The translations under genes and the position numbers were made by a program. From Candidatus Buchananbacteria bacterium (GTDB lineage Bacteria > Patescibacteriota > Patescibacteriia > Buchananbacterales > UBA6539), in assembly GCA_041664165.1 (NCBI GenBank), contig JBAYLH010000007.1:1-59894 (forward strand): a DNA stretch of 59,894 nucleotides. Direction: 5' to 3'. The notes beneath the pieces were generated by a model that had not been told where the DNA came from, searched no databases, and saw only the letters and a list, made by a program, of their open reading frames with translations. This document shows positions 6,001-30,513 of this stretch, piece by piece (the stretch's first letter is position 1; each line of letters starts with the position of its first letter).

Positions 6001-9000
6001 CATTCCGCCGGGCAATAGTCTTCCAGTTTGACGACGCCCGGAATTGTGGTTCCGCCTTTTAGCGGGGTATAAGCTTCGCAGCCGACTTCGTCTTGCTGGC
6101 AATACAAAGCGTAATTGGCGCACTGGGGCGAATCAACTTCGTGGCAGCAAAAATTGCCGGCCGCATCGCAGCTGTCAGCGGCGCAGGTGCCAGAGCCGCA
6201 ATCGGAATTAGCGCTGCAGCCTTGGCCGGCTTTGTCACCGCCCTGGCAGAACTTCCGCCAGACCAAAGTGTCGCCAACGCACTGAGCTTTGGTAACGCCG
6301 TCTAAAACCGCGGGGTTTGGCCGATCCAAACTATAGCCTTTGCAATCCAGTGAAACCGGCGCTTTTTTCAGATAAGTTAGGTTAGCCGCGCCATAATCTT
6401 TGTAGCTGGTCGTTACCGGATTTTTAGTTTCAACTTCTTCGATTTGAACGCCGTCAAGATAAAGCGGCTTGGTATTATCGGTACTCAAATTAGCGATTGA
6501 GAGTTTAAAATTATCGCTGCTGATTCGGGTAGTAATCGGATTGGCGACAAATCTCTGCCATTGGTCGGTTAAATGCAAAAATGCCGAATTATTAATTTGA
6601 AGCGGCGAAAAATCAGCCAAGCATTTGCCCTGGTTTCGGCCGCCAGCCGGACAGCCGCTCACCCCGTCGGCGCAGGTGCATAAATCATTAGTTGGCTCGC
6701 AGCTTAAAGCCGGATTCAAACTGCAAAAATGATCCGGATTATGATCGGATAAAATTTCCAAATACCACAGGCCGTCTTCCGGTTTTATTTCTTTGGTCGT
6801 CGAATCGGTTTTGGCCCAAAAAGAAATCCGGTAAGTGGTGTTGGCTTTCAAACCGGTAACCGGCCCGGTATCAAAATCCCGCGGCCGGCCCAAATTATCA
6901 TTATTTATTTTCAAGCATAATTTACCCACCGGGCAATCATTTTGAATTTGTTCAATTGAAGCATTATCGCTCGCTTGATGGCTTTCTCCCCAAAACCAGC
7001 CTTTGGGCAAACTACTAGCATCCGGCCAGTCTTCAAAACTGGCATTGTCAATCAAATTCGTGCCGGCATTGGGCAAAGTCTGGATGAATTCGGAACAACC
7101 AGCTTCCTCGGCCGAACAAGAACCGGCATCGCGGTCTAAATATAATTTGCTTTCGTCGCGGTCAATCGTCCCGACCAAAGTTAAAACTGCCCGATTAGTG
7201 ATGCAGCTTTTGGAAATCCGGAAATTATCAAACCAAACCACACCACTGACTTGTTTAACGCCGTCGCCGACTTCAATTCCGACCTTCACTTTGCCTTTGC
7301 CGTTGCCGGCGGCCGTAACCTTAAAATCAAAACTGATTTGCTGCCAGCCATTTTCTTTATTGACCATTTTTTCCCCTAGCACGCTGCTAGCCAAAGCATC
7401 GGTAACTTTTAAAGTAACATCGCCTTGGTTTAAATAATCATAAACTTGACTTGAAAAAGTATAATCGCCGGCCGGCAATTCCAATTCGGCCGAAGTCGCC
7501 GATTCGTCAATAACCGAACCGTAGTTGAAAAATCTCAAGCTCGCCTGGCCGCCATCGGCATAAATTCTTTCCGCCCCGCCGGCAACCTGGCTGAAATATT
7601 CCCGGTTGCCTTGCCACTTCAAAGAAAGCTGGCCGGTTGCCGGTGCCACGGCCGTTTCAAAACTCGGATTAGGCAACAAATTATCCAGGCTACTGCAGCT
7701 GTCGATAGCGCAAGAAACTCCGTTTTGCTTGATGGTGCAGCCGGTATTGACCACGCATTTGCTGCCGCTGGCCACCCAGAATTTTGAGCCGGAACTGCAT
7801 TTGTCGCTGATAGTCAAATTAACCTGCGAATTGGCGTCAAGACAGAAATTCAAGCCGTTGGGAATATCGCAGCTCGCCGTTACCGGACAGCCGCCTTTCT
7901 GGGTGCAGGGTTTGAGAACTTTTTTACCCTCATTAACGCAAGTCCAAATATTGTCAACCGGATTATAAGTCTGGCAATACCATTTGCAGCCGGCGTTATT
8001 GATGCTGCAGCCGTTGTAATTCAAAGAATTGGCCAAATAGCTGGCCACTGAGCCGCTGCTGCTTTGAAAAGTCTGACAGGTGTTATAATTAGCGCTGCAA
8101 TCTTTTCCGGCTAAATCCCAAACTCTTTTTTCTTCGCTGCAATAGCCGTAATTGCGGCAAGTGCCGTCGTTATTCCGGCTGATACAAGACTGGAAATCCG
8201 CGCAATATTCGGCGCGGCCGATATCGAGACTGGCCGCTTCGTCAGCCGAGCTGCCGGTTTCGGCTTGATAGATAATTTTCGGCCCGAAGCCCTGATTTTT
8301 ACAGATGACTTCCGGCAATTTTAAAACCCAATCCGGATCAATCAAGCCGTGATAAATACTCGCCGCATCGTTAGGGTCATTAAATTTTGAAACTAAATAA
8401 TTAAGGGTAATAATTTTACCGGGATCAAGCAGATGACCGGCTTCGGCCGCTAATTCCCAGCCAACCGGCACAATCCGGTAACTCCTCATAATCACGATAT
8501 TCCGATAAGACAGCTCCAAATTTTTCGCCGTCGGATCAAAATTCCAGGCTCCGAACGGCGCTTCACCGTCAATTAACCCGGCCTTCAGCGCATCCTTTAA
8601 AGTCATTTTTCTTTCGATGATATCGCGAAAAGCCGGCGAAATCACGCATTCTTCCGATCCCGGATTTTTGGGATCAGGACAAAAACTCAATTTGCTTAAT
8701 AAATCATAATCGCTGCTCGGCTTAACGCCGGCTTCCAAAAAATCCAAAAACCGCCGTTCGGCCGCCTTCTTGCCGCCGTATAAAGACACTCCGGTGTCGC
8801 CGGTATATAAATCCTGACTGCCGCCAGGACCCGGCCGAGGCAATAAACCCGCCAAAGCCCGGGCCAAATCTTCAATATAATTTTCATCATTGCCGGCATT
8901 GCTGGCCAAACCCTGCCTAAACCATTTGTCAAAAAGTTTGGACATTAAAGTATTGGCAAAAGTCGCAATCGCATAACCAAAAATATCGCCGAAAGGAACG

Positions 9001-9959
9001 TCCTCGGCCGCCTTGGTGCCTTTGCTGAGCGCCTGGTAAGACGCTTCGGAAACCAAAGACGATGGCGTCAAAATCGAATCAGCAATTTTTTGGCCGACCG
9101 ACTTCCAGCCTTGGCCTTCCTGCCGGCCCAAAATCCCGGCTAATTCATCTTTGGCTTTGGTCTGATAATAAAAATCAAACATCGAAAAAGCAATGCCGAT
9201 GTCATTAGCTGACGGCTCAAAAATACCGGTGAATTTATTCAAAAAATTCGGATCCTTGGCAAAACTTTGCCAATTCTTTACTAGCTGGGTTACGGTGCAT
9301 TTCGGCGGTTTCGGCCGACCCAGTTCGCTGATTCCCAAACTGATTCTGATTTTAATCGGACTGGCCGGTTCGCAAACATTATAATGCAGCCAGCTGCCGC
9401 TCAAACTTTCCAAAAATTTACCGCCGGCGGCATCGGCCAAATCCTTTAAATAAGCGCCCCAGCCCTTGGTATAAAACATCGGCTTTTGGCCTTCATCGCC
9501 GGTCGCCAGCCAAGTGGCCGTATCATAAGCAAAGGTATTAAGCATGTGGCTGACTGCGGTTTTGGCCGCCGCGTAAACGGAGTCTTTCAAGCTTTCCCAG
9601 CCCCAGTCCCTGACTTTAAAGAAATTACCCCACCAATCCTGCAAGCGCTGAATAAAAGTCAGATTTTTATTGGTGGTTTTGGTATCTTTATCAACTGCAT
9701 TGATAGTATCTTTTTGATTACCAGTTACTTCATCAAATTGGGGCTTGGTTACTTCGACTTCAATTGCGCTGGGCGACGCTGCCGCTTTGACCGGCAGCGG
9801 ATATAAAGCCGCTGGCATTACCGAAACTAAAACCATTTGAACCGTAATAATGATGGAAGCGGTTTTTTTAAAGCCGGAAAACCAAGGCCGACTCACCCGA
9901 TTTTTCAGCTGGGTTTGACCGTCTCCTGGCTTGGCAGATTTATTTGAAAAGTAATTCAT
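27..9959 (-). CDS. Giant (3310 aa) secreted/surface protein, Cys-rich, with several CBM4/9-like (galactose-binding fold) domains
   Basis: Single long ORF; N-terminal hydrophobic segment (ASIIITVQMVLVSVMPAALY); recurring domain starts NLLPNPSFET, NLIDNASFED, NLIFNGDLS, YISNGDFE; about ten C-x4/5-(G/S/T)C-xx-(F/Y/L) modules. Confidence 0.8.
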   Translation of the reverse strand: MNYFSNKSAKPGDGQTQLKNRVSRPWFSGFKKTASIIITVQMVLVSVMPAALYPLPVKAAASPSAIEVEVTKPQFDEVTGNQKDTINAVDKDTKTTNKNLTFIQRLQDWWGNFFKVRDWGWESLKDSVYAAAKTAVSHMLNTFAYDTATWLATGDEGQKPMFYTKGWGAYLKDLADAAGGKFLESLSGSWLHYNVCEPASPIKIRISLGISELGRPKPPKCTVTQLVKNWQSFAKDPNFLNKFTGIFEPSANDIGIAFSMFDFYYQTKAKDELAGILGRQEGQGWKSVGQKIADSILTPSSLVSEASYQALSKGTKAAEDVPFGDIFGYAIATFANTLMSKLFDKWFRQGLASNAGNDENYIEDLARALAGLLPRPGPGGSQDLYTGDTGVSLYGGKKAAERRFLDFLEAGVKPSSDYDLLSKLSFCPDPKNPGSEECVISPAFRDIIERKMTLKDALKAGLIDGEAPFGAWNFDPTAKNLELSYRNIVIMRSYRIVPVGWELAAEAGHLLDPGKIITLNYLVSKFNDPNDAASIYHGLIDPDWVLKLPEVICKNQGFGPKIIYQAETGSSADEAASLDIGRAEYCADFQSCISRNNDGTCRNYGYCSEEKRVWDLAGKDCSANYNTCQTFQSSSGSVASYLANSLNYNGCSINNAGCKWYCQTYNPVDNIWTCVNEGKKVLKPCTQKGGCPVTASCDIPNGLNFCLDANSQVNLTISDKCSSGSKFWVASGSKCVVNTGCTIKQNGVSCAIDSCSSLDNLLPNPSFETAVAPATGQLSLKWQGNREYFSQVAGGAERIYADGGQASLRFFNYGSVIDESATSAELELPAGDYTFSSQVYDYLNQGDVTLKVTDALASSVLGEKMVNKENGWQQISFDFKVTAAGNGKGKVKVGIEVGDGVKQVSGVVWFDNFRISKSCITNRAVLTLVGTIDRDESKLYLDRDAGSCSAEEAGCSEFIQTLPNAGTNLIDNASFEDWPDASSLPKGWFWGESHQASDNASIEQIQNDCPVGKLCLKINNDNLGRPRDFDTGPVTGLKANTTYRISFWAKTDSTTKEIKPEDGLWYLEILSDHNPDHFCSLNPALSCEPTNDLCTCADGVSGCPAGGRNQGKCLADFSPLQINNSAFLHLTDQWQRFVANPITTRISSDNFKLSIANLSTDNTKPLYLDGVQIEEVETKNPVTTSYKDYGAANLTYLKKAPVSLDCKGYSLDRPNPAVLDGVTKAQCVGDTLVWRKFCQGGDKAGQGCSANSDCGSGTCAADSCDAAGNFCCHEVDSPQCANYALYCQQDEVGCEAYTPLKGGTTIPGVVKLEDYCPAECVGYDSYKQSNTFFESQASINYFIPATGKQCNAASAGCDEFTNLDEVAKGGEGKEYYKYLRLCEKPNDPGVSCQNFYNWQGSDEAGYQLKVYNLAAAAGSPQAAMDISSWLPYWCADTAAGANGQPACCDGPEDIISNPFCKEFYGIDGNIYYRIYNNTIACSDDCHPFRKSRLNEGDAEATANCTASHGTWDGSSKTCVYQAIPSQGLACSNNVAGCREYSGNASGNVFTAFADNFEPGDTVGWKSGTISSEALSVGGHSIKSQQLAGLETIASAYSKLSSGGNCTESVTACSGNNAKDCFDRTLGKCVSDDTAGGQVCLINVGESSCSDLSQLIKPIKTYLISFWAKGSTTNTIPIKVKLASGSAGSAIIQESTNLGSDWNYYNFGPFTMPDAIPSDLALSLTGENGGTPAFYADNIEIKEVQNYVYEIKNSWKTPNSCDTNPWLSSGPIAAPQFMLGCKQYRDSYSRTHNLKSFDHLCRQEVIGCQALIDTFNSASPYEPEVPFNANDPISAVSVPADKLVYLVNRPQFQCTAANKGCQALGWPQISTADKVVGYQTAYLINDPDKYSSILCQSSEFGCDEFRTGNGTAYFKDPGAKTCEYRVAPGQASSAWFKSGSASTIPDCPLVQPPVGAVHPSNGWTGLCPGEFNSCTQFIDPVSTIAKNLIFNGDLSRDSDNNSVPDGWVKGADNYTQEGLQLEANTLYTLSFTAKKKLDGSLLVIEMKDCPNAVSFDHSIEIASDNKSFKIPPRNYQADSRTIDQISNFPAETTYSVRFTVPKKQVCKLDLKGSDLDNIKDSVKQVNLFKTGIYYTLSNTVDEFSCNGIVDPERGCVLFNDRSQVNFKIGEDDISSLGFDADTSGINVNNGLPVANCSGSCDSNAVLKVTPDRECEAWLACTSYAVTAVTSEGEQKQCLSLGLCNAADESGICTNFVPAAGKDSSGNDLRKSAFSTVEEIKNLSGYATAGLSFNQGVCANGMNNGAACNSKNDCTGSFTTCARTINGYFPYAEMTQYGNAAYISNGDFELAFNQTNQPLAWSEYSNQSSDHTTDGRGWMPYKYTLETNSKQRLEGRYLKLNTSYEAKSSEIDLEKNTDYILTAWINTEELKHDDPTMGTLPGTYLRGQVCYYPEIESSCRKEGDYYNSGSKVCCPKALVLPSGNKWQKLTYDFNSGDKGSKMTLYLSNYASDVATCRDGKDDTKCGISGYSLFDQISLKPVLQVKNVTSNDLNFAANDFVSRSCRVYPEYSSLACEYIDAKNIYHIGQYGYCLTADPNNPQQCVQWLPIDQIKGEMADEVVPYQIQTPLYYCVQKGEMPAFPSTQLMATFNTYTSYSAGSNDNQGRSVQLVPFQINEDYRPLFRYPYVRQIKGHFKFEPDNLPAFAMRGLGMVLNLPPTVDSTPFGPTGNCDPNIDHIQGCDVTFNLQSQGSEIYGFLPATLSFIVPWSAITGLIGALGGDPGISQLIGSALDIVGNLAGGSPGDPSAALLLNINSFKFYNSTQISSASYIDDMQTFQSQALFLNLFTQAGSALLGFAAGGDMENIAAALQISSGVQFSAKIGMATGVTIVTENDPRFTGQFVDPMPDIPNDIYGVAVINLVEGSEQAPGVYGNFKTNDINVNYCKQVVQVVDATGNNKAWSTRVAPGSQYLLPDPNSKKVGASYRNYYLYYDPFNYDQFLTAAQAVNGNIDSPDFAYQSSDYEPFGAIVPPAGLQNPPDWDSRTTNNRQPLFYEPPQPSLGAPYQARMGELHDINYLKRIFLKSYGTGWDFTAATGGLCSDNSANCTVTDKSLCANTNTATCNINHFGDGYKEVSNSNALTWDCLANPPINCGSFPRCGENKRPAGNPDPMGVFSDVCWIEPAIPSTLVNGQKSTVINGVGAVKLDFTVKVDANQLPLKSYSVDWQDGEKTSVSGVSLRERPNLENPFTIYHTYDYWQLKRTSNSPNRGPNLDCPADQNYCLVKPVIEVQDNWNKKNIPSAAASIKVIEKY

Positions 9960-13369: not shown

Positions 13370-14401
13370 TCAGCCTCTTATCTGCTTCACGAATTTATAA
13401 ATTGAAAAAATTACCGGGTTAGTAACCAAATCAAAGCTGCCGACGTATTCTTTGGGCGCCGTTGACTGGGAAAAACTGGTTTTAAACCGCGTAATCCCTT
13501 GCCACTTGGCATTGTTGTAAGTTTGGCCGTTAACGCCGCCGAAATCATAAAAAGAACAGCCCTGCTTTTTTGCCGCGCTAATTGCTTCCCATTGCAAAAG
13601 GTACGGTGCCATGACTTCGCGGTATAAATCCGAAGAAGCGCCATGAAGATAAGTGCAATATTTGCCGAAAAAAGACACGATGTTAGCGGCAATTACTTTG
13701 TTGTCATATTCGGCAATAAATAATTTAACCAAATTTTCCGCCGCCAAAACCTCGAACATTTTTTTATAGTGTTCTTTGGTGTGGGGCTGAAAGCCATCGC
13801 GGCTTGAAGTCTGTTTGATTAATTGCCAAAAACTTTCAATGTCGGAAATTTCCGTGCTAATTCTAATATTAACTTTGTGCCGCTGAGCTAAGCCGATATT
13901 GTACCGGGTTTTCGGTTTCATGTCGACCAACAATTGATCCTCACTTTTGGCTAAATCGATAATGGCATTGCACTTCGGCTGAATTTCATATTCGCCTTTT
14001 CGGAAGCCAACGTCAGTTAAGCGCTTTTCATGACCCAAAATCCAGGGCGGGTCAACCCGGATTAAAAAACTTTTTTCCTCCCGGGCGATTTTTTTAATTT
14101 CGGCAAACAGCGAATCCAAATCATCAATTTTCAAAACATTAATTACCGGCCCGCGCGGACAGTAAAGATAATTATATTCAAAAGGCAAATCGTGTTTAAT
14201 TAACAAAGCCGCAGCCTGGAGCTGGCCTTCGTCGTCAATAACCCCGAGCCGGATGATATGATTATCCAAGGCTTTTTGAAAATCGCCCCAAAGCCAAGAC
14301 TGCAGCAGACCGCCGTCAGTGGCGTTGGTTTTAATGAAGCTATCCCAATGCTGTTTTAATTCATCGCCAACTTGGACTATCTGCATAAAACTAAATGACA
14401 A
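13370..14401 (-). CDS. FemAB/FemX-family peptidoglycan bridge aminoacyltransferase
   Basis: LLQSWLWGDF, YLYCPRGP, KTRYNIGLA, YLHGAS, YDFGG and GITRFKTSF motifs. Confidence 0.9.
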   Translation of the reverse strand: MSFSFMQIVQVGDELKQHWDSFIKTNATDGGLLQSWLWGDFQKALDNHIIRLGVIDDEGQLQAAALLIKHDLPFEYNYLYCPRGPVINVLKIDDLDSLFAEIKKIAREEKSFLIRVDPPWILGHEKRLTDVGFRKGEYEIQPKCNAIIDLAKSEDQLLVDMKPKTRYNIGLAQRHKVNIRISTEISDIESFWQLIKQTSSRDGFQPHTKEHYKKMFEVLAAENLVKLFIAEYDNKVIAANIVSFFGKYCTYLHGASSDLYREVMAPYLLQWEAISAAKKQGCSFYDFGGVNGQTYNNAKWQGITRFKTSFSQSTAPKEYVGSFDLVTNPVIFSIYKFVKQIRG

Positions 14402-16961
14402 AATTAATTAATTTCCCCGGCACAAAAACGATATTTTTCACCGTCTGGCCGTCTAAATACTTTTTAATTTTTTCGCTTTGACGGGCAACGATTTCGGCCT
14501 GCTGCTCGGTAATATCGGATCTTACTTTCACTTTATCGCGAAATTTGCCGTTGATTTGGATAATTAGTTCGAATTCTTCGGCTTTGGCTAAATTCTCATC
14601 AGCTTTCGGCCAGGCCGCTTTAAAAATCGACTTTTTATTGCCGAGTTTTTCCCAAAGCTCCTCGACTAAATGCGGGGCAAACGGCGCCAAAAGCTTTAAA
14701 AAATTTTCTAAAGCGGCTAAATCAACCTGATATTCCCCTTTCATCTCTTCCAGCCTTGGCCGCCAATCCGGTCGGCTGTCTATGCCATTAAACTGGATCA
14801 TTAAAGCGGAAACCGCCGTATTGTAATTTTGCGTTTCAATATCTTCGGAAACTTTTTTGATAGTCCTATGAATTAGCCTCGATTTTTCCGATCTCTGATT
14901 TCCGATCTCTGATTTTTTTAAATCATCGGCAATCTTTGAAACTACCATATAAACTCTATCTAAAAATCTCCTTACCCCAACTACCCCTTTGGTATCCCAG
15001 GGAATCGCCTGGTCAAACGGCCCCATAAACATTTCATAAACCCGAAAAGTATCAGCGCCGAATTTTTTTACGACTTCATCGGGATTGACCACGTTGCCTT
15101 TGGATTTCGACATTTTTTCGCCGCCCTCGCCTAAAATTAAACCGTGCGATGTCCGTTTTTTGTAAGGCTCCGACCCGCAGCTTTTCGGTACGGCGCCGAT
15201 ATCATACAAAAATTTATAAACAAAGCGGGAATAAAGCAGATGTAAAGTAGTATGCTCCATGCCGCCGTTATACCAGTCAACCGGAATAAAGTGGGCTAAT
15301 TTTTTTTCCGCGGCCAAGGCTTTATCATTTTTCGGGTCAACGTAACGCAAGAAATACCAGTTAGAGCCTGCCCAGTTTGGCATGGTATCGGTTTCGCGCC
15401 GAGCCGAGCCGCCGCAAACCGGGCATTTGGTATTGACCCAGTCGGTAATTACCGAAAGCGGCGATTCGCCGTTATCGGTCGGCTCATACTTTTTCACATC
15501 CGGCAATTTGACCGGCAAATTTTTTTCCGGCACCCTCACCCAGCCGCTCGCCTCGCCAGTTAGCGGGTCTTTGACCGCTCCGGTTTTCTTACAATTTTCA
15601 CAATAAACCATGGGAATCGGTTCGCCCCAGTATCTTTGGCGCGAAAAAACCCAGTCGCGAAGTTTATAATTAACGGCTTTTTTGCCTAACCCCTGCTTAA
15701 CCAGCCATAAAGTAATTTCAGCAATCGCTGCTTTAACCGGCAAATCATTAAACTGACCGGAGTTGACTAATTTGCCCTCGGCAATTTCTTCATAAGCTTT
15801 CTCTTTGATATTGCCGCCGGCGATTACTTCAACAACCGGCAAGCCGTACTTCTGGGCGAAATCCCAGTCGCGCTGGTCATGGGCCGGCACCGCCATAATC
15901 GCGCCGGTACCGTAAGAAGTCAAAACGTAATCAGCGACAAAGATTGGAATTTCTTTCTGAGTCGCCGGATTAACCGCTTTAAGGCCCTTCAATTCAACGC
16001 CGGTTTTTTCCTTATTTAATTCCGTCCGTTCCAAATCGGACTTACTTTTAGCCTGCCTTATATAATCTTCGACTTCTTCCTGATTTCTGATTTCTGATTT
16101 CTGCCTGCCCGCCGAAGCATTTGCGAAGGCGGGATTTCTTAAAAGTTCATGCTCTGGCGAAATTACCATAAAAGTCGCGCCGAACAAAGTATCCGGCCGG
16201 GTGGTAAAAACCTTCAAACTTGTCACTTGTCTCTTGTTACTTGTCACTACGACAAAATCAATCTCCGCGCCTTCACTTCTGCCGATCCAATTAATCTGCT
16301 GCTGCTTAATCCGGTCTAAATAATCAACAGTTTCCAAATCTTCAATCAGCCGGTCGGCGTAATTGGTAATTTTGAGCATCCACTGTTCCTTTTCCCGTTT
16401 TTCCACTTCACCGCCGCAGCGCTCGCATTTGCCGCTGACCACTTCTTCGTTGGCTAAACCGATCTTACAAGATAAGCACCAGTTGATTGGAATTTTAGCC
16501 TTATAAGCTAAGCCATGCTCATACATTTTTAAAAATATCCATTGCGTCCATTTGTAATACTTCGGGTCAGTCGTGGTTATAACCCGGTCCCAGTCAAAAG
16601 AAAAACCAAGCGCTTTGAGCTGGGTAGTAAAAGTTTTGATATTTTTTTCCGTGGTAATAGCCGGATGAATGCCGGTTTTAATGGCGTAATTTTCCGACGG
16701 CAGGCCGAAAGCGTCAAAACCGATCGGATACAAAACATTATAGCCTTCCATCCGGCGTTTTCGCGCTAAAATATCCAAAGCGGTATTGCTGCGCGGATGG
16801 CCGACATGCAGACCTTCGCCGGAAGGATAAGGAAATTCAATTAAACAATAATACTTCGGTTTGGCGGATTTATCAGCAGCGGCAAAAGCCTTGGTTTTCT
16901 CCCAAACCTTCTGCCATCTAGACTCACCTTTTTTGTCTAAAAAATTTTTATATGTTGACAT
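14391..16961 (-). CDS. leuS: Leucine--tRNA ligase, with several short in-frame insertions
   Basis: FPYPSGEGLHVGH, KMSKS, DTMPNWAGS and GGMEHTTLHLLYSRF motifs; ATG at 16961 chosen over TTG at 16970. Confidence 0.98.
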   Translation of the reverse strand: MSTYKNFLDKKGESRWQKVWEKTKAFAAADKSAKPKYYCLIEFPYPSGEGLHVGHPRSNTALDILARKRRMEGYNVLYPIGFDAFGLPSENYAIKTGIHPAITTEKNIKTFTTQLKALGFSFDWDRVITTTDPKYYKWTQWIFLKMYEHGLAYKAKIPINWCLSCKIGLANEEVVSGKCERCGGEVEKREKEQWMLKITNYADRLIEDLETVDYLDRIKQQQINWIGRSEGAEIDFVVVTSNKRQVTSLKVFTTRPDTLFGATFMVISPEHELLRNPAFANASAGRQKSEIRNQEEVEDYIRQAKSKSDLERTELNKEKTGVELKGLKAVNPATQKEIPIFVADYVLTSYGTGAIMAVPAHDQRDWDFAQKYGLPVVEVIAGGNIKEKAYEEIAEGKLVNSGQFNDLPVKAAIAEITLWLVKQGLGKKAVNYKLRDWVFSRQRYWGEPIPMVYCENCKKTGAVKDPLTGEASGWVRVPEKNLPVKLPDVKKYEPTDNGESPLSVITDWVNTKCPVCGGSARRETDTMPNWAGSNWYFLRYVDPKNDKALAAEKKLAHFIPVDWYNGGMEHTTLHLLYSRFVYKFLYDIGAVPKSCGSEPYKKRTSHGLILGEGGEKMSKSKGNVVNPDEVVKKFGADTFRVYEMFMGPFDQAIPWDTKGVVGVRRFLDRVYMVVSKIADDLKKSEIGNQRSEKSRLIHRTIKKVSEDIETQNYNTAVSALMIQFNGIDSRPDWRPRLEEMKGEYQVDLAALENFLKLLAPFAPHLVEELWEKLGNKKSIFKAAWPKADENLAKAEEFELIIQINGKFRDKVKVRSDITEQQAEIVARQSEKIKKYLDGQTVKNIVFVPGKLINFVI

Positions 16962-16989
16962 AATTAACAATTACTTTATAACTCTGCTC

Positions 16990-21526: not shown

Positions 21527-22396
21527 CTAACGCGGCCACTCCGGTACCCAGGTCCAATTAGCCCCGGCAGCTTCAACGTGAAAATGCCGCCCGGTTCCTC
21601 CCGGTTCATCCACGAAAATCGTACCGTCTCGCATTCTATATGCCCTGCCCCACGTAAGCTGAGTAAAATTTGACCCATCGGGATTTTTGATAGCATTGGT
21701 TGTTACATAGTTATAACAAGGAGCCGTCATACTCGCATCCCAGACATAACCCGAACCATGGCGGTTCTCACCGGCTCGATAGCCATCAGTCGAAGTGCAG
21801 CCTTGGTCTTGATAGAGTTGCCGCCTTTGATTTGCTTCGTCTGTTAGCTGAGTAAAATTGCCGCGAGCCGTGCCGCCGCCGGCTCCTGTCCCGGCTCCGA
21901 TTGCCGCAAATTCCGCTGAACCGCCCGAACCAAACCCGGGCGATATCACGCCCGGCAACTTCGCGACGGCGATTTGCTTTATCCTAATGGCTTCCAAGTT
22001 GGTCAGTTTCGGATTTATCGCCGTTAGCACCATAATGGCAAATAAGGCCAAAAACAATCCGCTCAAGGCGCTAGTGATAAACTCTTTGGCTTTACCGACT
22101 TTATCCGGACTGCCGGCCGACATCAGCCAAACTAACCCGCCGACCATAATCATCACAATGGCTAAAGCGGCGGCGAAACCGACGCCGTAGTTATATAAAG
22201 CGGAAATATACTGGCCAAGCCAAGGAATTGAACACTCGGAACCGGCGGTGCAACTGACCGTTTGAAAATCAATTTTAGTTGAGCCGATTATAACCTGCAT
22301 TTTAGGCGGCGTGGTCTCACCAGCGGCCAAAACTAAAACCGGCAGAAAAATTGTCAAAATTAAACTGGCTAATAAAATTTTATTTCTCTTTTTCAT
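21527..22396 (-). CDS. VirB2/TrbC-like pilin fused to a putative M15-like Zn peptidase domain
   Basis: Same pilin segment; C-terminal GYR...RHGSGYVWD and HFHVE match the H-x(3-6)-D / HxH pattern of M15/LAS peptidases. Confidence 0.75.
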   Translation of the reverse strand: MKKRNKILLASLILTIFLPVLVLAAGETTPPKMQVIIGSTKIDFQTVSCTAGSECSIPWLGQYISALYNYGVGFAAALAIVMIMVGGLVWLMSAGSPDKVGKAKEFITSALSGLFLALFAIMVLTAINPKLTNLEAIRIKQIAVAKLPGVISPGFGSGGSAEFAAIGAGTGAGGGTARGNFTQLTDEANQRRQLYQDQGCTSTDGYRAGENRHGSGYVWDASMTAPCYNYVTTNAIKNPDGSNFTQLTWGRAYRMRDGTIFVDEPGGTGRHFHVEAAGANWTWVPEWPR

Positions 22397-22508
22397 TCTC
22401 TAAAAAATTAATATTTCTGTAAAAAATCGAATAGGATAAATCACTTTTAACCAAGCTGCCAATCAATGACAACACTTACCATTTCCGCCCGCCCTAGCCG
22501 ATTAAATA

Positions 22509-23387
22509 TCACATTGAAATATTCAACCTATTTGATTGCATCATATTTTCTATATATGACAACCCGGATGACATATCCATATTATTCAAATTCTGAGCCA
22601 TATCCCTAAATAGTTGGGGGATAGGAAAAATCAAATTACCCGGTGAATACCAGTGATTAGCAAGATTTGCTTGATTTGAAGCATCAACCCAGGGTATGCC
22701 ATCATTTATCGTTCGCGCATCAATTCCCCCATAATAGTATTGCCACCGGCCATCGTAAAATCTTAAATTTAACACACTTGTTGCCGACATTCCGACACGA
22801 TTTATTTCCGGCGGCGTTTCGACATGGATAAATCTACCATTATCAAAATCAGTCGCAGAAATACGCGCATTTAGGCCATTAGTGATTCCTTCAAGCCGCG
22901 GATTTACCCCGGTAACGGTAATTCCTTTTAAATTAACCAAATTGGGATTAATCGTGGTTAAAATCATCACCGCAAAAAGCGCCAAAAGCAAACCGCTCAA
23001 AGCGCTGGCGATAAATTCTTTCGCTTTGCCGACTTTGTCCGGACTGCCGGCTGATAATAGCCAGACTAAGCCGCCGACCATAATCATCACAATAGCTAAG
23101 GCGGCGGCCAAACCGATGCCGTAGTTATATAAAACGGAAATATACTGGCCGATCCAGCTAATTTGCAAGCACTGAACGCCGTTGGCCGTGCCGTTGGGAC
23201 AATAATTCGAACCACTTTGCCAGCCGGCGTTTTCGCCCGTCCAGCCGCTAAAGCCGCCGAGATGAATTTGAACTGTCGGCACAATCGGATCAGCCGCCAA
23301 GGTCAGGTTGGCGCCAAAAATAAAAATGAAAAAAAATAGCAAAAATTTTCCCGGGAGGCTCAAATTAAAATTTATTTTTTTAGCCAC
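22509..23387 (-). CDS. VirB2/TrbC-like pilin with unrecognised C-terminal domain
   Basis: Same pilin segment (YISVLYNYGIGLAAALAIVMIMVGGLVWLLSAGSPDKVGKAKEF); AT-richer unrelated C-terminus; GTG start 3 nt after the dsbA stop. Confidence 0.75.
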   Translation of the reverse strand: MAKKINFNLSLPGKFLLFFFIFIFGANLTLAADPIVPTVQIHLGGFSGWTGENAGWQSGSNYCPNGTANGVQCLQISWIGQYISVLYNYGIGLAAALAIVMIMVGGLVWLLSAGSPDKVGKAKEFIASALSGLLLALFAVMILTTINPNLVNLKGITVTGVNPRLEGITNGLNARISATDFDNGRFIHVETPPEINRVGMSATSVLNLRFYDGRWQYYYGGIDARTINDGIPWVDASNQANLANHWYSPGNLIFPIPQLFRDMAQNLNNMDMSSGLSYIENMMQSNRLNISM

Positions 23388-26755: not shown

Positions 26756-26840
26756 GGGCGAGTGGCGAAACTTGGTAGACGCGCTAGCTTCAGGAGCTAG
26801 TTCCCGCAAGGGATTGGAGGTTCAAATCCTCTCTCGCCCA
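26756..26840 (+). tRNA. tRNA-Leu (anticodon CAG), CCA not encoded
   Basis: Acceptor GGGCGAG/CTCGCCC, anticodon arm CTAGC-TTCAGGA-GCTAG, long variable arm CCC-GCAA-GGG, T-arm GGAGG-TTCAAAT-CCTCT. Confidence 0.96.
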
Positions 26841-26876
26841 TCTCCCGTATCCTGCAATATAAAATGGTGCAGGGAC

Positions 26877-26987
26877 GGGGAAACCCATGAGAGTTTCCCG
26901 ACGCACGTATTATTAAAAATAATTAATGAAGTCGGGATCCCGATTGCCAACTTTAGTAGCACATCGGGACGAGTCTCCCCTTCGGCA
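26877..26987 (+). pseudogene. tRNA-Leu-like 3' fragment interrupted in the T-loop by a palindromic element
   Basis: GGGGAAACCCATGAGAGTT [26896-26969 insert] CGAGTCTCCCCTTCGGCA. Confidence 0.6.
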
Positions 26988-27015
26988 TAGACATAAGTGG
27001 CACTTTACGTCGGGA

Positions 27016-27247
27016 TTCTCGCAAGAGATTGGAGGTTTCCCGACGCACGTATTACTTATATTAATTTAAGAAGTCGGCCTGCCCGCCATTTGTCTCCTTA
27101 AATTTAAGGTTTAAAGTTTTTGGGTTATAACGCTCCAATCATTCTAATTTATAAATTGAGCAGGCATTGGCAGGCGGGGATCCCGATTTTCTAAACCATA
27201 ATTTTAAAAAATCAGGACAAATCCTCTCTTGCCCACCTTCGGCACCA
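27016..27247 (+). pseudogene. Second tRNA-Leu 3' fragment interrupted in the T-loop, plus a third 3' end with CCA
   Basis: TTCTCGCAAGAGATTGGAGGTT [27038-27217 insert] CAAATCCTCTCTTGCCCA, overlapping CCCACCTTCGGCACCA. Confidence 0.7.
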
Positions 27248-27296: not shown

Positions 27297-29063
27297 ATGA
27301 AAAAAACTAACAAACCAAAAGGCCGGCAATGGCACCGGCCGCTCTCCAGACAACAGTCAAAGGGAGCCAACGAATCTTATAAAATCGGCAACAAAGCCGA
27401 GGCGAAGCTTAAAATTTATGCTTTAGGGGGCCTCGAAGAAGTCGGCCGGAATATGACGGTTTTCGAATTCGGCTCCGATATTATTATCGTTGATATGGGT
27501 TCGCAATTTCCCGAAGAAGACATGCATGGCATTGATTACATTATTCCCAACGTGACTTCGCTGAAAGGCCGGGAAAAAAATATCCGCGGCGTGATTATCA
27601 CCCACGGCCATTTAGACCATATCGGCGCCGCGCCTCACCTTCTGCCGAAACTAGGCAATCCTTTGGTTATCGGGGCGCCAATGACCATTGCCTTATTGAA
27701 AAAACAGATTGAAAACCATCAGGAAAAATTTACCCCTAAGGTTTTAGAAATAAAATCGCTGAAAACCCAGGTTCAACTGGGCAAATTTAAAATCAATTTT
27801 TTCCAGGTTACCCACAGCATTAAAGATTCAATCGGCGTAATCATTCAAACGCCGGTGGCCAATGTCATCCATCCCGGCGATTGGCGGTATGATTTGGATC
27901 CGGTGGCCGGTCCGAGAACCGATTTGAGATATTTGGCTCGCTGGAATACCAAATTAGCGCCTTCGATTTTAATGATGGAAAGTTTAGGTTCAACCGAATT
28001 GGGCCATCAAGGTTCGGAAAAAGAGGTTTATAAAAATGTTGAAAATATCATCAAAAAAGCCGAAGGCCGGGTCATTTTCGGCACCTTTGCCAGCATGTTG
28101 GAACGGATCGGCCAAGTCATTGAAATTGCCCAAAATCACGGCAAAAAAGTGGCGGTTGACGGTTTCAGCATGAAAACCAACGTCGAAATCGGCAAAAAAT
28201 TCGGCTTTATTAAAGCCAGCAAAAACACTTTAATCGATATTGATAAAATTGACAGCTACCCTAAAAATAAAATTGTGGTAATTTGTACCGGTTCGCAGGG
28301 CGAAGGCCGAGCCGTGCTGAGCCGGATCGCCAACCGCGAGCACCGCTACATTAAAATTGAGCCCAAAGACACCGTGGTCTTTTCTTCTTCAGTGATTCCC
28401 GGCAATGAAAGAACAATTCAATATCTCAAAGACAGCCTGTATCGGCAGGGCGCGAATGTTATCCACAAAGAAATTATGGATGTTCACGCCGGCGGCCATG
28501 GCAAAATTGAAGACATCAAACTTTTACTCAGCCAAGTCAGGCCGGCCTGGCTAATTCCGATTTATGCCAACCATTACCTTTTGCGGGAAGCGGCTAAAGT
28601 CGCCGAAAGCATCGGTTTCAACAAACAAAAAATCTTGGTCGCTGACAACGGCCAAATCATTGAATTCGATAAAGCCGGCGGCCGGCTGACCGATAACCGC
28701 GTCCCGACCGATTACGTTTTCGTTGATGGCTTAGGCGTCGGCGATGTTTCCCACGTCGTTTTACGCGACCGCCAAGTCATGGCCGACGATGGGATGATTG
28801 TCGTCATTGCGACGATCAGTAAAGCAACCGGCACTTTGGTCCAAAATCCCGATTTGATTTCCCGCGGTTTTATCTATATGAAGGAAAACAAAAAGCTGAT
28901 TGAAGAAACCAGGATGAAAGCCAAAAAAATCTTCAAGGAAAATTTAACCGGCGGCATTGATGAAAATTATTACAAAGATAAAATCAGAAATGAAATCGGC
29001 CAATTCCTGTACCAAAAAACTCAAAGGCGACCGATGGTACTTCCAGTAATTATCCAGGTTTAG
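27297..29063 (+). CDS. rnj: Ribonuclease J
   Basis: LGGLEEVGRNM, THGHLDHIGA, VTHSI, GSQGE and HAGGH motifs. Confidence 0.97.
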   Translation: MKKTNKPKGRQWHRPLSRQQSKGANESYKIGNKAEAKLKIYALGGLEEVGRNMTVFEFGSDIIIVDMGSQFPEEDMHGIDYIIPNVTSLKGREKNIRGVIITHGHLDHIGAAPHLLPKLGNPLVIGAPMTIALLKKQIENHQEKFTPKVLEIKSLKTQVQLGKFKINFFQVTHSIKDSIGVIIQTPVANVIHPGDWRYDLDPVAGPRTDLRYLARWNTKLAPSILMMESLGSTELGHQGSEKEVYKNVENIIKKAEGRVIFGTFASMLERIGQVIEIAQNHGKKVAVDGFSMKTNVEIGKKFGFIKASKNTLIDIDKIDSYPKNKIVVICTGSQGEGRAVLSRIANREHRYIKIEPKDTVVFSSSVIPGNERTIQYLKDSLYRQGANVIHKEIMDVHAGGHGKIEDIKLLLSQVRPAWLIPIYANHYLLREAAKVAESIGFNKQKILVADNGQIIEFDKAGGRLTDNRVPTDYVFVDGLGVGDVSHVVLRDRQVMADDGMIVVIATISKATGTLVQNPDLISRGFIYMKENKKLIEETRMKAKKIFKENLTGGIDENYYKDKIRNEIGQFLYQKTQRRPMVLPVIIQV

Positions 29064-29265: not shown

Positions 29266-30513
29266 ATGAAAAAACTTTTACTCTGTTTGCCGCTTTTATT
29301 AACCTTGCTTGTTTCCGGCTGTCAAGCACCACCGATTGCCCAACCTAATGTTAACGACAACGGTGCTAATTTGGATTCAATTGGTAAAACCATTAAAGGT
29401 AATGATGAATTCGGCTTGAATTTATATACTAAATACAAGACCAAAGACGGCAATATTTTCTTTTCACCCTATAGCATCTCTTCGGCTTTGGCGATGACTT
29501 ACGAAGGCGCCAAAGGCCAAACCGCCGCTGAAATGCAGAAAGTTTTCGGCTTTTTAGCCGACCCGACCGATCGCCGGTCTTCTTTTGCTAAAATCTACAA
29601 CGATTTGAACGCAAAAAATGAAGATTACCAGCTTAACACAGCCAACGCTTTATGGGTGCAAAAAGATTTTCCATTTTTAGCTGATTATCTTAACCTGGTT
29701 GAAAAATATTACGGTGGCAAAGCAACCAATTTGGATTTTATAAATCAAACCGAACAGTCCCGACAGACAATTAACCAATGGGTGGAAAAAAAGACTAATA
29801 ACAAGATTCAAAACCTCCTGCCCCAAGGCAGTGTTTCTGGTGACACCAGGCTGATTTTAACCAATGCCGTTTATTTCAAAGGAACCTGGCTTTTCCCGTT
29901 TGAAAAAAGCAGCACTCAAAAAAAAGATTTTCAGCTAACACCAACCAATACCGTTACTGTCGATATGATGCAACTATACGGCAAAAAATTTAAGTATAGC
30001 GAGACTAATAAACTCCAAGCCTTAGAAATACCATACAAGGGTGATAAAATTTCCATGCTAATTCTATTGCCAAAAAATAACGATTTGGCGTATCTGGAAA
30101 ATAACCTCAACTTGAAAAATTTAAATGAGTGGAAAACCAGCATGAACTCAGAAAAAGTCACAGTTTTTTTACCTAAATATAAATTTGATACAAAATATGA
30201 TATGGCCCAAGATTTAACTCAATTAGGCATGCCAACCGCTTTCAATTGTTCACTCGCTGATTTCTCCGGCATGACCGGCAAAACTGACTTATGTATTGAC
30301 CAGGTCATTCATAAAGCCTTTATTGAAGTTGATGAACAGGGAACTGAAGCCGCGGCGGCTACGGCGGTTATCATGAAGACTAGCATGGCTGGTCCGACTC
30401 AACCAGAAAAAATCTACTTTTTTAATGCTGATCATCCATTTATCTTCTTAATTCAAGACAAACAAAGCGGCAATATCTTATTTTTAGGCCGAGTCAGCGA
30501 CCCGACCAAATAA
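29266..30513 (+). CDS. Serpin-family protease inhibitor, probable lipoprotein
   Basis: NIFFSPYSISSALAMTYEGAKGQT, hinge EQGTEAAAATAV, FNADHPFIFLI; lipobox LLVSGC. Confidence 0.95.
   Translation: MKKLLLCLPLLLTLLVSGCQAPPIAQPNVNDNGANLDSIGKTIKGNDEFGLNLYTKYKTKDGNIFFSPYSISSALAMTYEGAKGQTAAEMQKVFGFLADPTDRRSSFAKIYNDLNAKNEDYQLNTANALWVQKDFPFLADYLNLVEKYYGGKATNLDFINQTEQSRQTINQWVEKKTNNKIQNLLPQGSVSGDTRLILTNAVYFKGTWLFPFEKSSTQKKDFQLTPTNTVTVDMMQLYGKKFKYSETNKLQALEIPYKGDKISMLILLPKNNDLAYLENNLNLKNLNEWKTSMNSEKVTVFLPKYKFDTKYDMAQDLTQLGMPTAFNCSLADFSGMTGKTDLCIDQVIHKAFIEVDEQGTEAAAATAVIMKTSMAGPTQPEKIYFFNADHPFIFLIQDKQSGNILFLGRVSDPTK

Follow-up and report, generated by a model that had tools for sequence, protein, structure and literature searches.

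Double-palindrome inserts in stacked tRNA-Leu remnants of Candidatus Buchananbacteria, and their relatives beside tRNA genes of other uncultured bacteria

We analysed 59,894 nt of Candidatus Buchananbacteria DNA (contig JBAYLH010000007.1, positions 1 to 59,894 of the forward strand; hereafter the window), in which an intact tRNA-Leu(CAG) gene is followed by 407 nt containing truncated copies of tRNA-Leu. Two of these remnants are split in the T-loop by inserts, E1 and E2, belonging to a family of double palindromes designated E. Our favoured interpretation, to which we give an even chance, is that E is a non-autonomous double-palindrome DNA insertion element, which prefers tRNA stem-loop sequence and survives only in the redundant remnants of repeated tRNA gene replacement. 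This interpretation starts from direct observations, namely the anatomy of the region, the family and its spread over phyla, the association with tRNA remnants, relatives in which the downstream side of tRNA-Leu is bare, and the lack of coding capacity in E. Loci compared with the window are labelled L plus a number (e.g., L138).

The region and its surroundings comprise the following features (window coordinates and strand).
26756–26840, + strand: intact tRNA-Leu(CAG), CCA not encoded (ARAGORN; Rfam RF00005, 54 bits)
26844–26879, + strand: hairpin hp0, tentative, based on sequence, fold and analogues in relatives
26876–26895, + strand: left part of remnant F1, namely variable arm (GGGGAAACCC), T-stem 5' strand and TT, from a native-type tRNA-Leu(CAG)
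26896–26969, strand unassigned: E1, 74 nt, with hairpin 1 (TCCCGAC..GTCGGGA, 26896–26937) and hairpin 2 (TCCCGAT..ATCGGGA, 26938–26969)
26970–26987, + strand: right part of remnant F1, namely the rest of the T-loop and the 3' strands of T-stem and acceptor stem (CGAGTCTCCCCTTCGGCA), without CCA
26988–27015, + strand: linker TAGACATAAGTGGCACTTTAC and orphan right hairpin arm GTCGGGA (27009–27015)
27016–27037, + strand: left part of remnant F2, namely variable arm (CTCGCAAGAG), T-stem 5' strand and TT (repeat D3)
27038–27217, strand unassigned: E2, 180 nt, holding a nested element
27078–27178, strand unassigned: nested AT-rich insert, 101 nt, with GC-rich ends CCTGCCCGCC...GGCAGGCGGG
27218–27235, + strand: right part of remnant F2, CAAATCCTCTCTTGCCCA (repeat D2)
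27236–27247, + strand: remnant F3, CCTTCGGCACCA, with native-type acceptor 3' strand, encoded CCA and native downstream flank
27297–29063, + strand: RNase J gene, the conserved downstream neighbour, outside the element

Removal of E1 rejoins GGGGAAACCCATGAGAGTT with CGAGTCTCCCCTTCGGCA, and removal of E2 rejoins TTCTCGCAAGAGATTGGAGGTT with CAAATCCTCTCTTGCCCA, the insert boundaries being unambiguous in both cases. A first-pass annotation of this DNA had placed both inserts between TT and C of the T-loop and proposed that excision restores tRNA 3' sequence; both statements hold (the junction is T55/C56), and every string it quoted is present at its position. Rejoined F1 matches the intact tRNA-Leu of the relative L138 at 35 of 37 positions, with one mismatch in the T-stem. 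Rejoined F2, which is of the same allele type as the window's intact tRNA-Leu, matches that gene at 37 of 40 positions and shows the compensatory CCC/GGG to CTC/GAG change in the variable arm that had been pointed out earlier (repeat D3). When fused to a matching 5' part, F1 and F2 are each called as tRNA-Leu(CAG) by ARAGORN, so the proposal that the rejoined fragments would score as tRNA 3' parts was correct. The 5' halves that might have matched them were not found in the 60 kb. ARAGORN with intron and low-score options called no further tRNA in the region, with or without the inserts, and a tmRNA, a permuted tmRNA and a split tRNA were rejected on the same searches.

The first hairpins of E1 and E2 are 86% identical over 43 nt and the second hairpins differ; the earlier view that the same element split both remnants is therefore true at the family level only. 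The central palindrome of E1 is TCGGGATCCCGA. In E2, hairpin 1 runs from 27038 to 27077 and resumes at 27179–27180, while hairpin 2 (TCCCGAT..ATCAGGA) starts at 27181 and ends at 27217. The nested insert is located in the 3' arm of hairpin 1, 2–4 nt 5' of the junction between the two hairpins. This nested element, noted in the first pass, is real: with 27078–27178 taken out in silico (a boundary that can slide by 2 G), GTCGGGATCCCGAT is restored. The ends of the insert are similar to a second palindrome family (CCTGCCTGCC followed by GGCAGGCAGG), and a diverged copy of window positions 27099–27190 was found in metagenome run X2. Both the hairpin motif TCCCGA-N-TCGGGA and a 17-mer common to E1 and E2 (TCCCGACGCACGTATTA) occur twice in the window (0.13 expected for each), and the 410-nt region folds far below shuffled controls (z −5.1).

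In hp0, TCCTGCA (26850–26856) pairs with TGCAGGGA (26868–26875) and CCCG/CGGG extends the stem; its end is the exact start of the F1 variable arm. The hairpin is analogous to the TCCCGC..GCGGGA hairpin that L151 and L144 remnants have instead of an anticodon arm, and ATGGTG within it (26864–26869) looks like a D-arm residue of an old gene. An inverted tRNA 3' end was also considered for AATGGTGCGGGA, which stands before remnants; judged by the relatives, it is better read as TGGTG, a remainder of a D-arm, together with the right arm of a hairpin of the E type. The orphan GTCGGGA at 27009–27015 abuts the F2 variable arm, and the start of the preceding linker (TAGAC...) resembles the linker 3' of tRNA-Leu in L144, L128, L147, L172 and L181. 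As a separate observation, the conserved linker TAGGCGTAGGCAGG(CGGG) lies 3' of tRNA-Leu at window 26988–27008, L128 2155, L144 2183, L147 1318, L172 2151 and L181 2389, and it precedes a 5'-truncated tRNA-Leu copy in each locus, despite RNase J being only 54–80% identical. The further tRNA end reported after the second insert was confirmed as F3, which by its sequence is probably the 3' end of the original resident gene.

The remnants and inserts are no assembly artefact, because the sequence of the region is identical between two independent groundwater metagenomes, of 2018 and 2022. No insert-free variant of the locus was seen among the metagenome contigs aligned to the region, and an exact-match protein look-up with RNase J returned the source contig only, yielding no strain variants. 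In the window annotation, tRNA-Leu(CAG) lies between a family-5 solute-binding protein gene (SBP_bac_5) and the RNase J gene, whose product is 80–85% identical to proteins of Candidatus Buchananbacteria and other Patescibacteria.

Using RNase J, we fetched 80 related loci (462 kb) from the Candidate Phyla Radiation (CPR), and the order tRNA-Leu(CAG)–RNase J proved to be conserved among them. At nine loci (L125, L126, L127, L136, L137, L140, L141, L143 and L146), the downstream side is bare, as the tRNA gene ends in ...GGCACCA and RNase J follows; we read the bare gene as the ancestral state from these sequences. At other loci, between one and four truncated copies of tRNA-Leu follow the intact gene (L121, L123, L124, L128, L130, L133, L138, L144, L145, L147, L151, L172 and L181), which bears out the idea of a serially accumulated stack. 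In such remnant-bearing loci, the intact gene usually lacks CCA, and only the last remnant keeps the native-type ...GGCACCA end (...GACACCA in L128) together with the native flank (window, L123, L124, L128 and L144). Older 3' ends have therefore been pushed downstream. Two allele types can be distinguished: the native type begins with GCCG... and has the variable arm GGGGAAACCC, and the second type has GGGCGAG... or the anticodon stem GCTAGC, with the variable arm C(C/T)CGCAAG(G/A)G. The working gene of the window (GGGCGAG...CTCGCCCA) is of the second type, unlike the native Buchananbacteria type seen by comparison with L138 and L145, and F1 and F3 are of the native type. Thus, the resident gene itself has been replaced, which supports serial accumulation and does not specifically support integrase-mediated integration.

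Three further observations on these loci deserve a record. The tRNA-Leu(CAG) of L140 (2224–2310) is a mosaic with native acceptor stem and D-arm, second-type anticodon stem and mixed variable arm, which suggests gene conversion between the allele types. In L122 (upstream of 2501), a solute-binding protein gene is followed directly by RNase J, with no tRNA-Leu between them. In L133 (~1030–1060), an inverted copy of a tRNA-Leu remnant's 3' end stands ahead of that end (TTTGGCGCGGGGAG T CTCCCCCGCGGCACCAAA), and the pair forms a near-perfect palindrome, CCA included.

To survey the family, one genome per species was scanned with the pattern TCCCGA-N-TCGGGATCCCGA-N-TCRGGA, allowing only the dimer form with perfect arms. 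In reference genomes, at least 119 loci match this single pattern, against ~2 by chance according to our own prior arithmetic. The figures on family copies given hereafter refer to the matches listed. Their hosts are Omnitrophota, many Patescibacteria classes, Margulisiibacteriota, Saganbacteria, WOR-1, Planctomycetota and a few others; 14 matches in GC-rich genomes lie inside genes and look like chance. MEUD01000001, JAZDFF01 and VGKK01 have three or four loci each. E measures 52–96 nt, contains no open reading frame (ORF) and consists of two adjacent hairpins with 6-bp feet (TCCCGA/TCGGGA), so that the arms of the double palindrome stand in the order forward, reverse, forward, reverse. The arms are extended to 12–15 nt in subfamilies, and the seventh base pair of the hairpins covaries (C:G, T:A, A:T). 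The loops are variable yet more self-complementary than shuffled sequence (mean z −1.5; 65 of 184 below −2). An alternative fold, in which the outer ends pair (over 12–15 nt in some subfamilies), is preferred by about half of the copies (41, versus 49 for the other fold). Relative to tRNA sense, E can point either way, and both orientations occur at the same tRNA site (read by eye). Its flanks show a loose T-(A/T)-G preference beside either end; neither a target duplication at tRNA sites nor a fixed 4–5-nt target was found. In Omnitrophota, certain copies are flanked on either side by TA or by 7-nt direct repeats, although this is not a constant feature.

Within the family, an Omnitrophota subfamily with 12-nt terminal inverted repeats (TCCCGAATGNAG..CTNCATTCGGGA; L002, L006, L008, L011, L019, L037, L061, L071, L084, L085 and others) is rarely near tRNAs (3 of 24), and its flanks often have TA on both sides or 7-nt direct repeats in short tandem heptamer runs (TAGAGAG, TAGCAAG, CGATATG). 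Tandem arrays alternating two hairpin units (TCCCGAGACTTAATATG..CTCGGGA and TCCCGAAGTATTTCGG) were noticed in L032 (560–727), L033, L045 and L075, with several in the metagenome-assembled genome DRR093004_bin.13.

A considerable proportion of E copies is associated with tRNA genes. Among the low-GC copies, 31 of 91 lie within 150 nt of an intact tRNA, compared with 3.4% of the locus bases, and exclusion of the Omnitrophota subfamily leaves 28 of 67. In 31 cases, the joined flanks of E align to the adjacent tRNA, with the same isotype and strand, and the junctions fall at positions 10–16, 39–41 and 54–58, or 67–69 in long-arm tRNAs. Remnants of the 3' side lie downstream of the intact gene with E in the T-loop (Trp in L040, Pro in L062, Ile in L066, Arg in L077 and Phe in L049). 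Remnants of the 5' side lie upstream, with E in the D-arm at TAG^CTCAG, TTAG^CTTGG or GCT^CAG, or at positions 39–41 (L003, L005, L015, L036, L052, L064, L070 and L091). Other T-loop copies sit after GTTC. The specificity for GTT^C(G/A)A put forward in the first pass is accordingly too narrow. As for the targets of other copies, positions recur among the tRNA-associated ones, but at least a third of the copies have no tRNA in their vicinity. In the 462 kb of related CPR loci, on the other hand, all seven TCCCGA..TCGGGA hairpins, from four genomes, are in the T-loops of tRNA-Leu remnants (0–2 in shuffled sequence), so the proposed strong tie between a non-coding element and tRNA sequence was upheld there.

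The tRNA copies that host E are pseudogenes or truncated copies and not sole functional tRNA genes. None of the family copies is seen in an intact tRNA, and all 31 tRNA-associated copies have an intact neighbour tRNA. Excision of E restores the consensus T-loop or D-arm in several tRNA species, and in only 4 of 105 cases does ARAGORN then call a tRNA. Each of these adjoins an intact tRNA of the same isotype and anticodon, and in the three that were checked (two in L027 and one in L078) the 5' acceptor strand is absent or unpaired. The remnants lie 6–57 nt behind the intact gene in L040, L062, L066, L077, L049, L078 and L027. Most are coherent on both sides of E (L062, L077, L123 and window F2), and the idea that E always marks a hybrid crossover junction was rejected for this reason. 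Because E occurs in either orientation and was not seen in an intact tRNA, its apparent specificity may be the residue after selection against insertions in working genes. A separate case is L052 (4617–5000), in which an old tRNA-Val copy carries four insertions: the T-loop insertion begins with CCTGCCCC, and another is an E with a complete, identical tRNA-Val gene inside its second hairpin.

Some loci give hints of how E is gained, lost and recombined. For L003, a contig from another sample represents an empty allele, with 0 differences over 125 nt in one flank and 1 difference over 21 nt in the other. This contig has 15 nt where L003 has 131 nt, which comprise a leader, tRNA-Thr positions 1–12, E, positions 13–22 and a second leader. 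RNA runs searched for L003 returned tRNA-like words only, except for one contig, which was the empty allele. In the orthologous copies of the window (E1 and E2), L123, L128 and L138, the junctions GTTTCCCGAC and ATC(G/A)GGAC are invariant and the AT-rich loops are strongly diverged. The apparent single hairpin of L128 consists of the hairpin-1 left arm joined to the hairpin-2 right arm, and has therefore arisen by internal deletion. The E of L138 has a second-type (foreign) flank on its left and a native-type flank on its right; an exchange thus occurred at or inside E. Right arms (GCGGGA, GTCGGGA, CAGGGA) stand directly before remnant variable arms at window 26870–26875 and 27009–27015 and in L124 and L138. 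From their sequences, such arms seem to mark a second E-type hairpin in the place of the anticodon arm, where the hairpin is still complete in L151 and L144, and they probably mediated the 5' truncations of the remnants.

E is not the only palindrome at these sites. A different GC-rich two-hairpin insert, E' (TCCGCCC..GGCGGG plus TGCGCC..GGCGCA), follows GTTC in the T-loop of tRNA-Leu remnants; it has the architecture and the site of E with a different sequence, and compensatory changes distinguish its copies in L124 and L144. In addition, a perfect 20-nt palindrome, CCTGCCTGCCGGCAGGCAGG (CCTGCCTGCC followed by GGCAGGCAGG), sometimes looped, occurs in tRNA-Leu remnants of related CPR genomes, as well as outside tRNAs in L122, L184, L109 and L107. 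The positions within the remnants are as follows.
L124 ~2330: E'
L144 ~2240–2270: E'
L151 ~150–205: E'
L140 ~1957, L141 ~2165 and L145 ~830: CCTGCCTGCCGGCAGGCAGG in the D-loop
L133 ~1789 and L191 ~1987: CCTGCCTGCCGGCAGGCAGG in the T-loop
As several palindrome families share the same sites, the tRNA remnants of these bacteria act as a general sink for short palindromic elements.

E is built from four copies of a 6–15-nt arm (core TCCCGA) in alternating orientation, forming two adjacent hairpins, and the two ends of the element can pair instead. Under the insertion-element interpretation, it would insert in either orientation and without target duplication into short stretches characteristic of tRNA stem-loops, namely behind TT or TTC of the T-loop, at TAG^CT of the D-arm, or in the 3' side of the anticodon arm. 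Insertions in working tRNA genes would be purged by selection, leaving the copies in redundant truncated tRNAs next to a working gene. In the Buchananbacteria lineage, tRNA-Leu(CAG) may have been replaced several times by recombination with other alleles, although the recombination route by which the remnants were made is itself our inference. Each replacement would have shifted the older 3' parts downstream, and F3, presumably the oldest, would have retained CCA and the native flank. Copies of E and of the second palindrome family would later have accumulated in the remnants, i.e., the remnant would have come first and E second, and recombination between arms would then have deleted and reshuffled the pieces. 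We suppose that E moves at the DNA level through a trans-acting and probably structure-specific (HUH/RAYT-like) enzyme; E consists of hairpins only, does not duplicate its target and resembles repetitive extragenic palindromes (REPs) and bacterial interspersed mosaic elements (BIMEs), features that suggest an HUH-type enzyme specific to single strands.

Several points weigh against this interpretation. No enzyme was identified in the window or in the neighbourhoods of E, and no transposition event was caught. No integrase, transposase or recombinase domain was found in 38 window ORFs, and neither a transposase nor a REP-associated tyrosine transposase (RAYT) was found beside E or in the window. 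Clustering of the ORFs within 2.5 kb of E at 119 loci revealed no recurrent protein, and we suspect that the top cluster represents spurious short ORFs close to E and its tRNA neighbours. The arms of E are near-invariant while the loops have diverged (window, L123, L128 and L138), which would fit a selected function equally. For a selfish element, it is odd to prefer targets in most of which insertion is lethal. An intact gene and, 6–57 nt away, a truncated copy bearing E recur together so regularly (L078, L027, L040, L066 and L077) that duplication and insertion may be mechanistically coupled, for which the insertion-element interpretation does not account. The two copies in the 60-kb window are adjacent, with none elsewhere in it. 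Finally, as the genome scan demanded perfect arms and the dimer form, the conservation seen across the family and the ratio of monomers to dimers are biased. An IS91-like target (GTTC/CTTG) was also tried; it fits some T-loop sites and fails at the D-arm sites.

It is attractive to speculate more broadly, although we regard this as doubtful, that several palindrome families (E, E' and the 20-nt palindrome) form a system that homes to tRNA stem-loops through a trans-acting enzyme, possibly on single-stranded DNA. Such a system might drive the disruption, duplication and foreign-allele replacement of tRNA genes in Patescibacteria, Omnitrophota, Margulisiibacteriota and relatives, with remnant cassettes spreading via tRNA homology.

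The principal rival to the insertion-element interpretation, which we judge unlikely, is that the mobile unit is a cassette of E plus flanking tRNA, entering by homologous recombination with a resident tRNA gene. A circular or concatemeric fragment would enter through one crossover, or DNA taken up by the cell would be joined by homology-facilitated illegitimate recombination. The viable crossovers would be those on the side of E that leaves a gene intact, hence the pairing of an intact gene with a truncated copy bearing E. The architecture expected from a single crossover is found in L078, where tRNA positions 1–76 are followed by 6 nt and then by positions 6–16, E and positions 17–76. L003 likewise has a leader with positions 1–12, E and positions 13–22, followed by a leader with the intact gene, and there the remnant, E and the diverged leader replace 15 nt between otherwise identical flanks. 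Moreover, the remnant allele often differs from the adjacent gene (L062, L077, the tRNA-Val case of L027 and window F1), and mosaic tRNA-Leu alleles exist (L140). Nevertheless, no circular or free form was seen, and one-sided homology arms of 8–20 nt are very short for RecA. The cassette also leaves the first entry of E into a tRNA, the reproducible insertion points and the unrelated palindromes at the same positions unexplained.

Less probable still is the possibility that the T-stem enclosing two hairpins, together with the acceptor 3' strand, is kept as something useful to the host. Downstream of the tRNA, it might signal RNA processing or termination, or else the hairpins might disarm the remnant against RNase P, RNase Z or recombination. 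The arms and junctions (GTTTCCCGAC and ATCGGGAC) are indeed invariant across lineages with RNase J only 77–85% identical, whereas the loops diverge. The compensatory changes between L124 and L144 in the unrelated E' at the same T-loop site, and the fold of the 410-nt region (z −5.1 vs shuffled), point in the same direction. Nevertheless, the composite is absent from many close relatives, E stands beside many different tRNAs and downstream genes in either orientation, and the copies distant from tRNAs (a third or more) fit poorly with such a role. No Rfam family matched either: only RF00005 at the intact gene passed the cutoff, with no match to group I or group II introns or to ribozymes, and the sub-threshold matches (miRNA models, a trypanosome rRNA model and RAGATH-36) were dismissed as noise far below it.

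The first-pass annotation regarded the remnants as scars of integration by an integrative element, a claim that is not supported, as the window contains neither integrase nor cargo. The related proposal that E is the crossover site of tyrosine-integrase elements using the T-loop, with the arms as recombinase sites left at attR, is in our judgement quite improbable. The T-loop is reportedly a crossover sublocation of the integrases that target tRNA genes, as Williams is said to have described in 2002 for integration sites in tRNA and tmRNA genes, and several remnants begin at the T-stem 5' strand like att identity blocks (L040 and L066); the hybrid flanks of L138 at E would also agree with it. 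Most remnants are, however, coherent across E (L062, L077, L123 and window F2), the ends of E and the T-loop have no common overlap sequence, and no integrase is recurrent near E. In addition, E lies in D-arms and far from tRNAs as well, and is nearly absent from viral contigs, a scan of which gave two atypical matches and no phage link.

Archaeal non-canonical introns include ones at T-loop positions. That E is an intervening sequence removed from RNA, i.e., a bacterial tRNA intron whose exons are rejoined, is nonetheless very improbable: precise excision in silico does restore canonical T-loops and D-arms, and the compact structured insert stands at positions that carry non-canonical introns in archaea (PMC4090602), but the hosts are truncated copies beside an intact gene, some flanks are unable to pair as a T-stem (L138), the orientation varies relative to tRNA sense, both junctions sit at the base of a single 6-bp helix or of a pair of adjoining hairpins with no bulge-helix-bulge, and Rfam gave no ribozyme or intron match.

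If the insertion-element interpretation is correct, several large uncultured phyla have tRNA genes that are being attacked by a class of tiny palindromic elements, so far overlooked, and stacks of dead tRNA pieces are a record of repeated gene replacement. A literature search returned no description of the E motif or of tRNA-targeted palindromes in these phyla. The family explains odd tRNA-like fragments that confuse the annotation of CPR and Omnitrophota genomes, and offers a natural marker by which recombination at tRNA loci, and horizontal exchange there, could be followed in organisms not amenable to culture. The sequence handle TCCCGA..TCGGGATCCCGA..TCGGGA may also serve enzyme discovery by phyletic profiling. 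If the hairpins are removed from RNA instead, they would represent a new kind of bacterial tRNA processing.

The remainder of the window has ordinary chromosomal content (UvrA, LeuRS, KsgA, SHMT, purine genes and TrpRS/TyrRS). The window opens with a giant ORF (27–9959, − strand; 3310 aa), and a serpin-domain gene (29266–30513) directly follows RNase J. Two neighbouring genes at 21527–23387 have weak matches to type IV secretion system pilin domains and lie beside a lysozyme-like gene. The leucyl-tRNA synthetase gene (14391–16970, − strand) is situated ~10 kb upstream of the tRNA-Leu locus, probably by coincidence.

Compared with known systems, E is closest in appearance to REP, BIME and REPIN sequences with their RAYTs and to miniature inverted-repeat transposable elements (MITEs; Correia, ERIC and RPE), being likewise short, non-coding and palindromic and, in some genomes, present at three or four loci. 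As in BIMEs, its units alternate in orientation, form hairpins and lack a gene of their own, and are presumably mobilised in trans. REPs are laid out as GTAG plus a palindrome, and the D-arm insertions of E, which have GTAG directly before the hairpin, are reminiscent of this layout. Unlike REPs and MITEs, however, the 6-nt arm core of E spans several phyla instead of one lineage, E is tied to tRNA remnants at defined positions and does not duplicate its target at tRNA sites, neither a RAYT nor a transposase was found near it or in the window, and its copy number is apparently low in Patescibacteria. Like IS200/IS605-type elements and their miniatures, E has hairpins at both ends, leaves no target duplication and prefers a short sequence at its border; nevertheless, its hairpins are terminal and not subterminal, it has no fixed tetra- or pentanucleotide target, it occurs in both orientations, and no TnpA or TnpB was seen. 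Archaeal bulge-helix-bulge tRNA introns are similarly short and structured, their removal restores the tRNA, and related inserts occur at many tRNA positions, whereas E is bacterial, resides in truncated pseudogenes in variable orientation and lacks splice sites in two 3-nt bulges separated by a 4-bp helix. The partial tRNA duplications at attL and attR of integrative elements resemble the stacks in being direct tRNA 3' repeats downstream of an intact gene (F1–F3; L040, L062, L066 and L077), in their ordering by age and in the T-loop as a hot position. The stacks differ from them in having no integrase or cargo, in their close spacing (36–170 nt between the window pieces, and spacers of 6–57 nt in the other loci shown), in whole-gene allele replacement, in 5'-side remnants upstream of genes and in a foreign palindrome inside the repeat. 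An att duplication would be an uninterrupted hybrid repeat; the copies described here are interrupted by E, being hybrid in L138, with one T-stem mismatch in F1, and coherent in F2, L062, L077 and L123.

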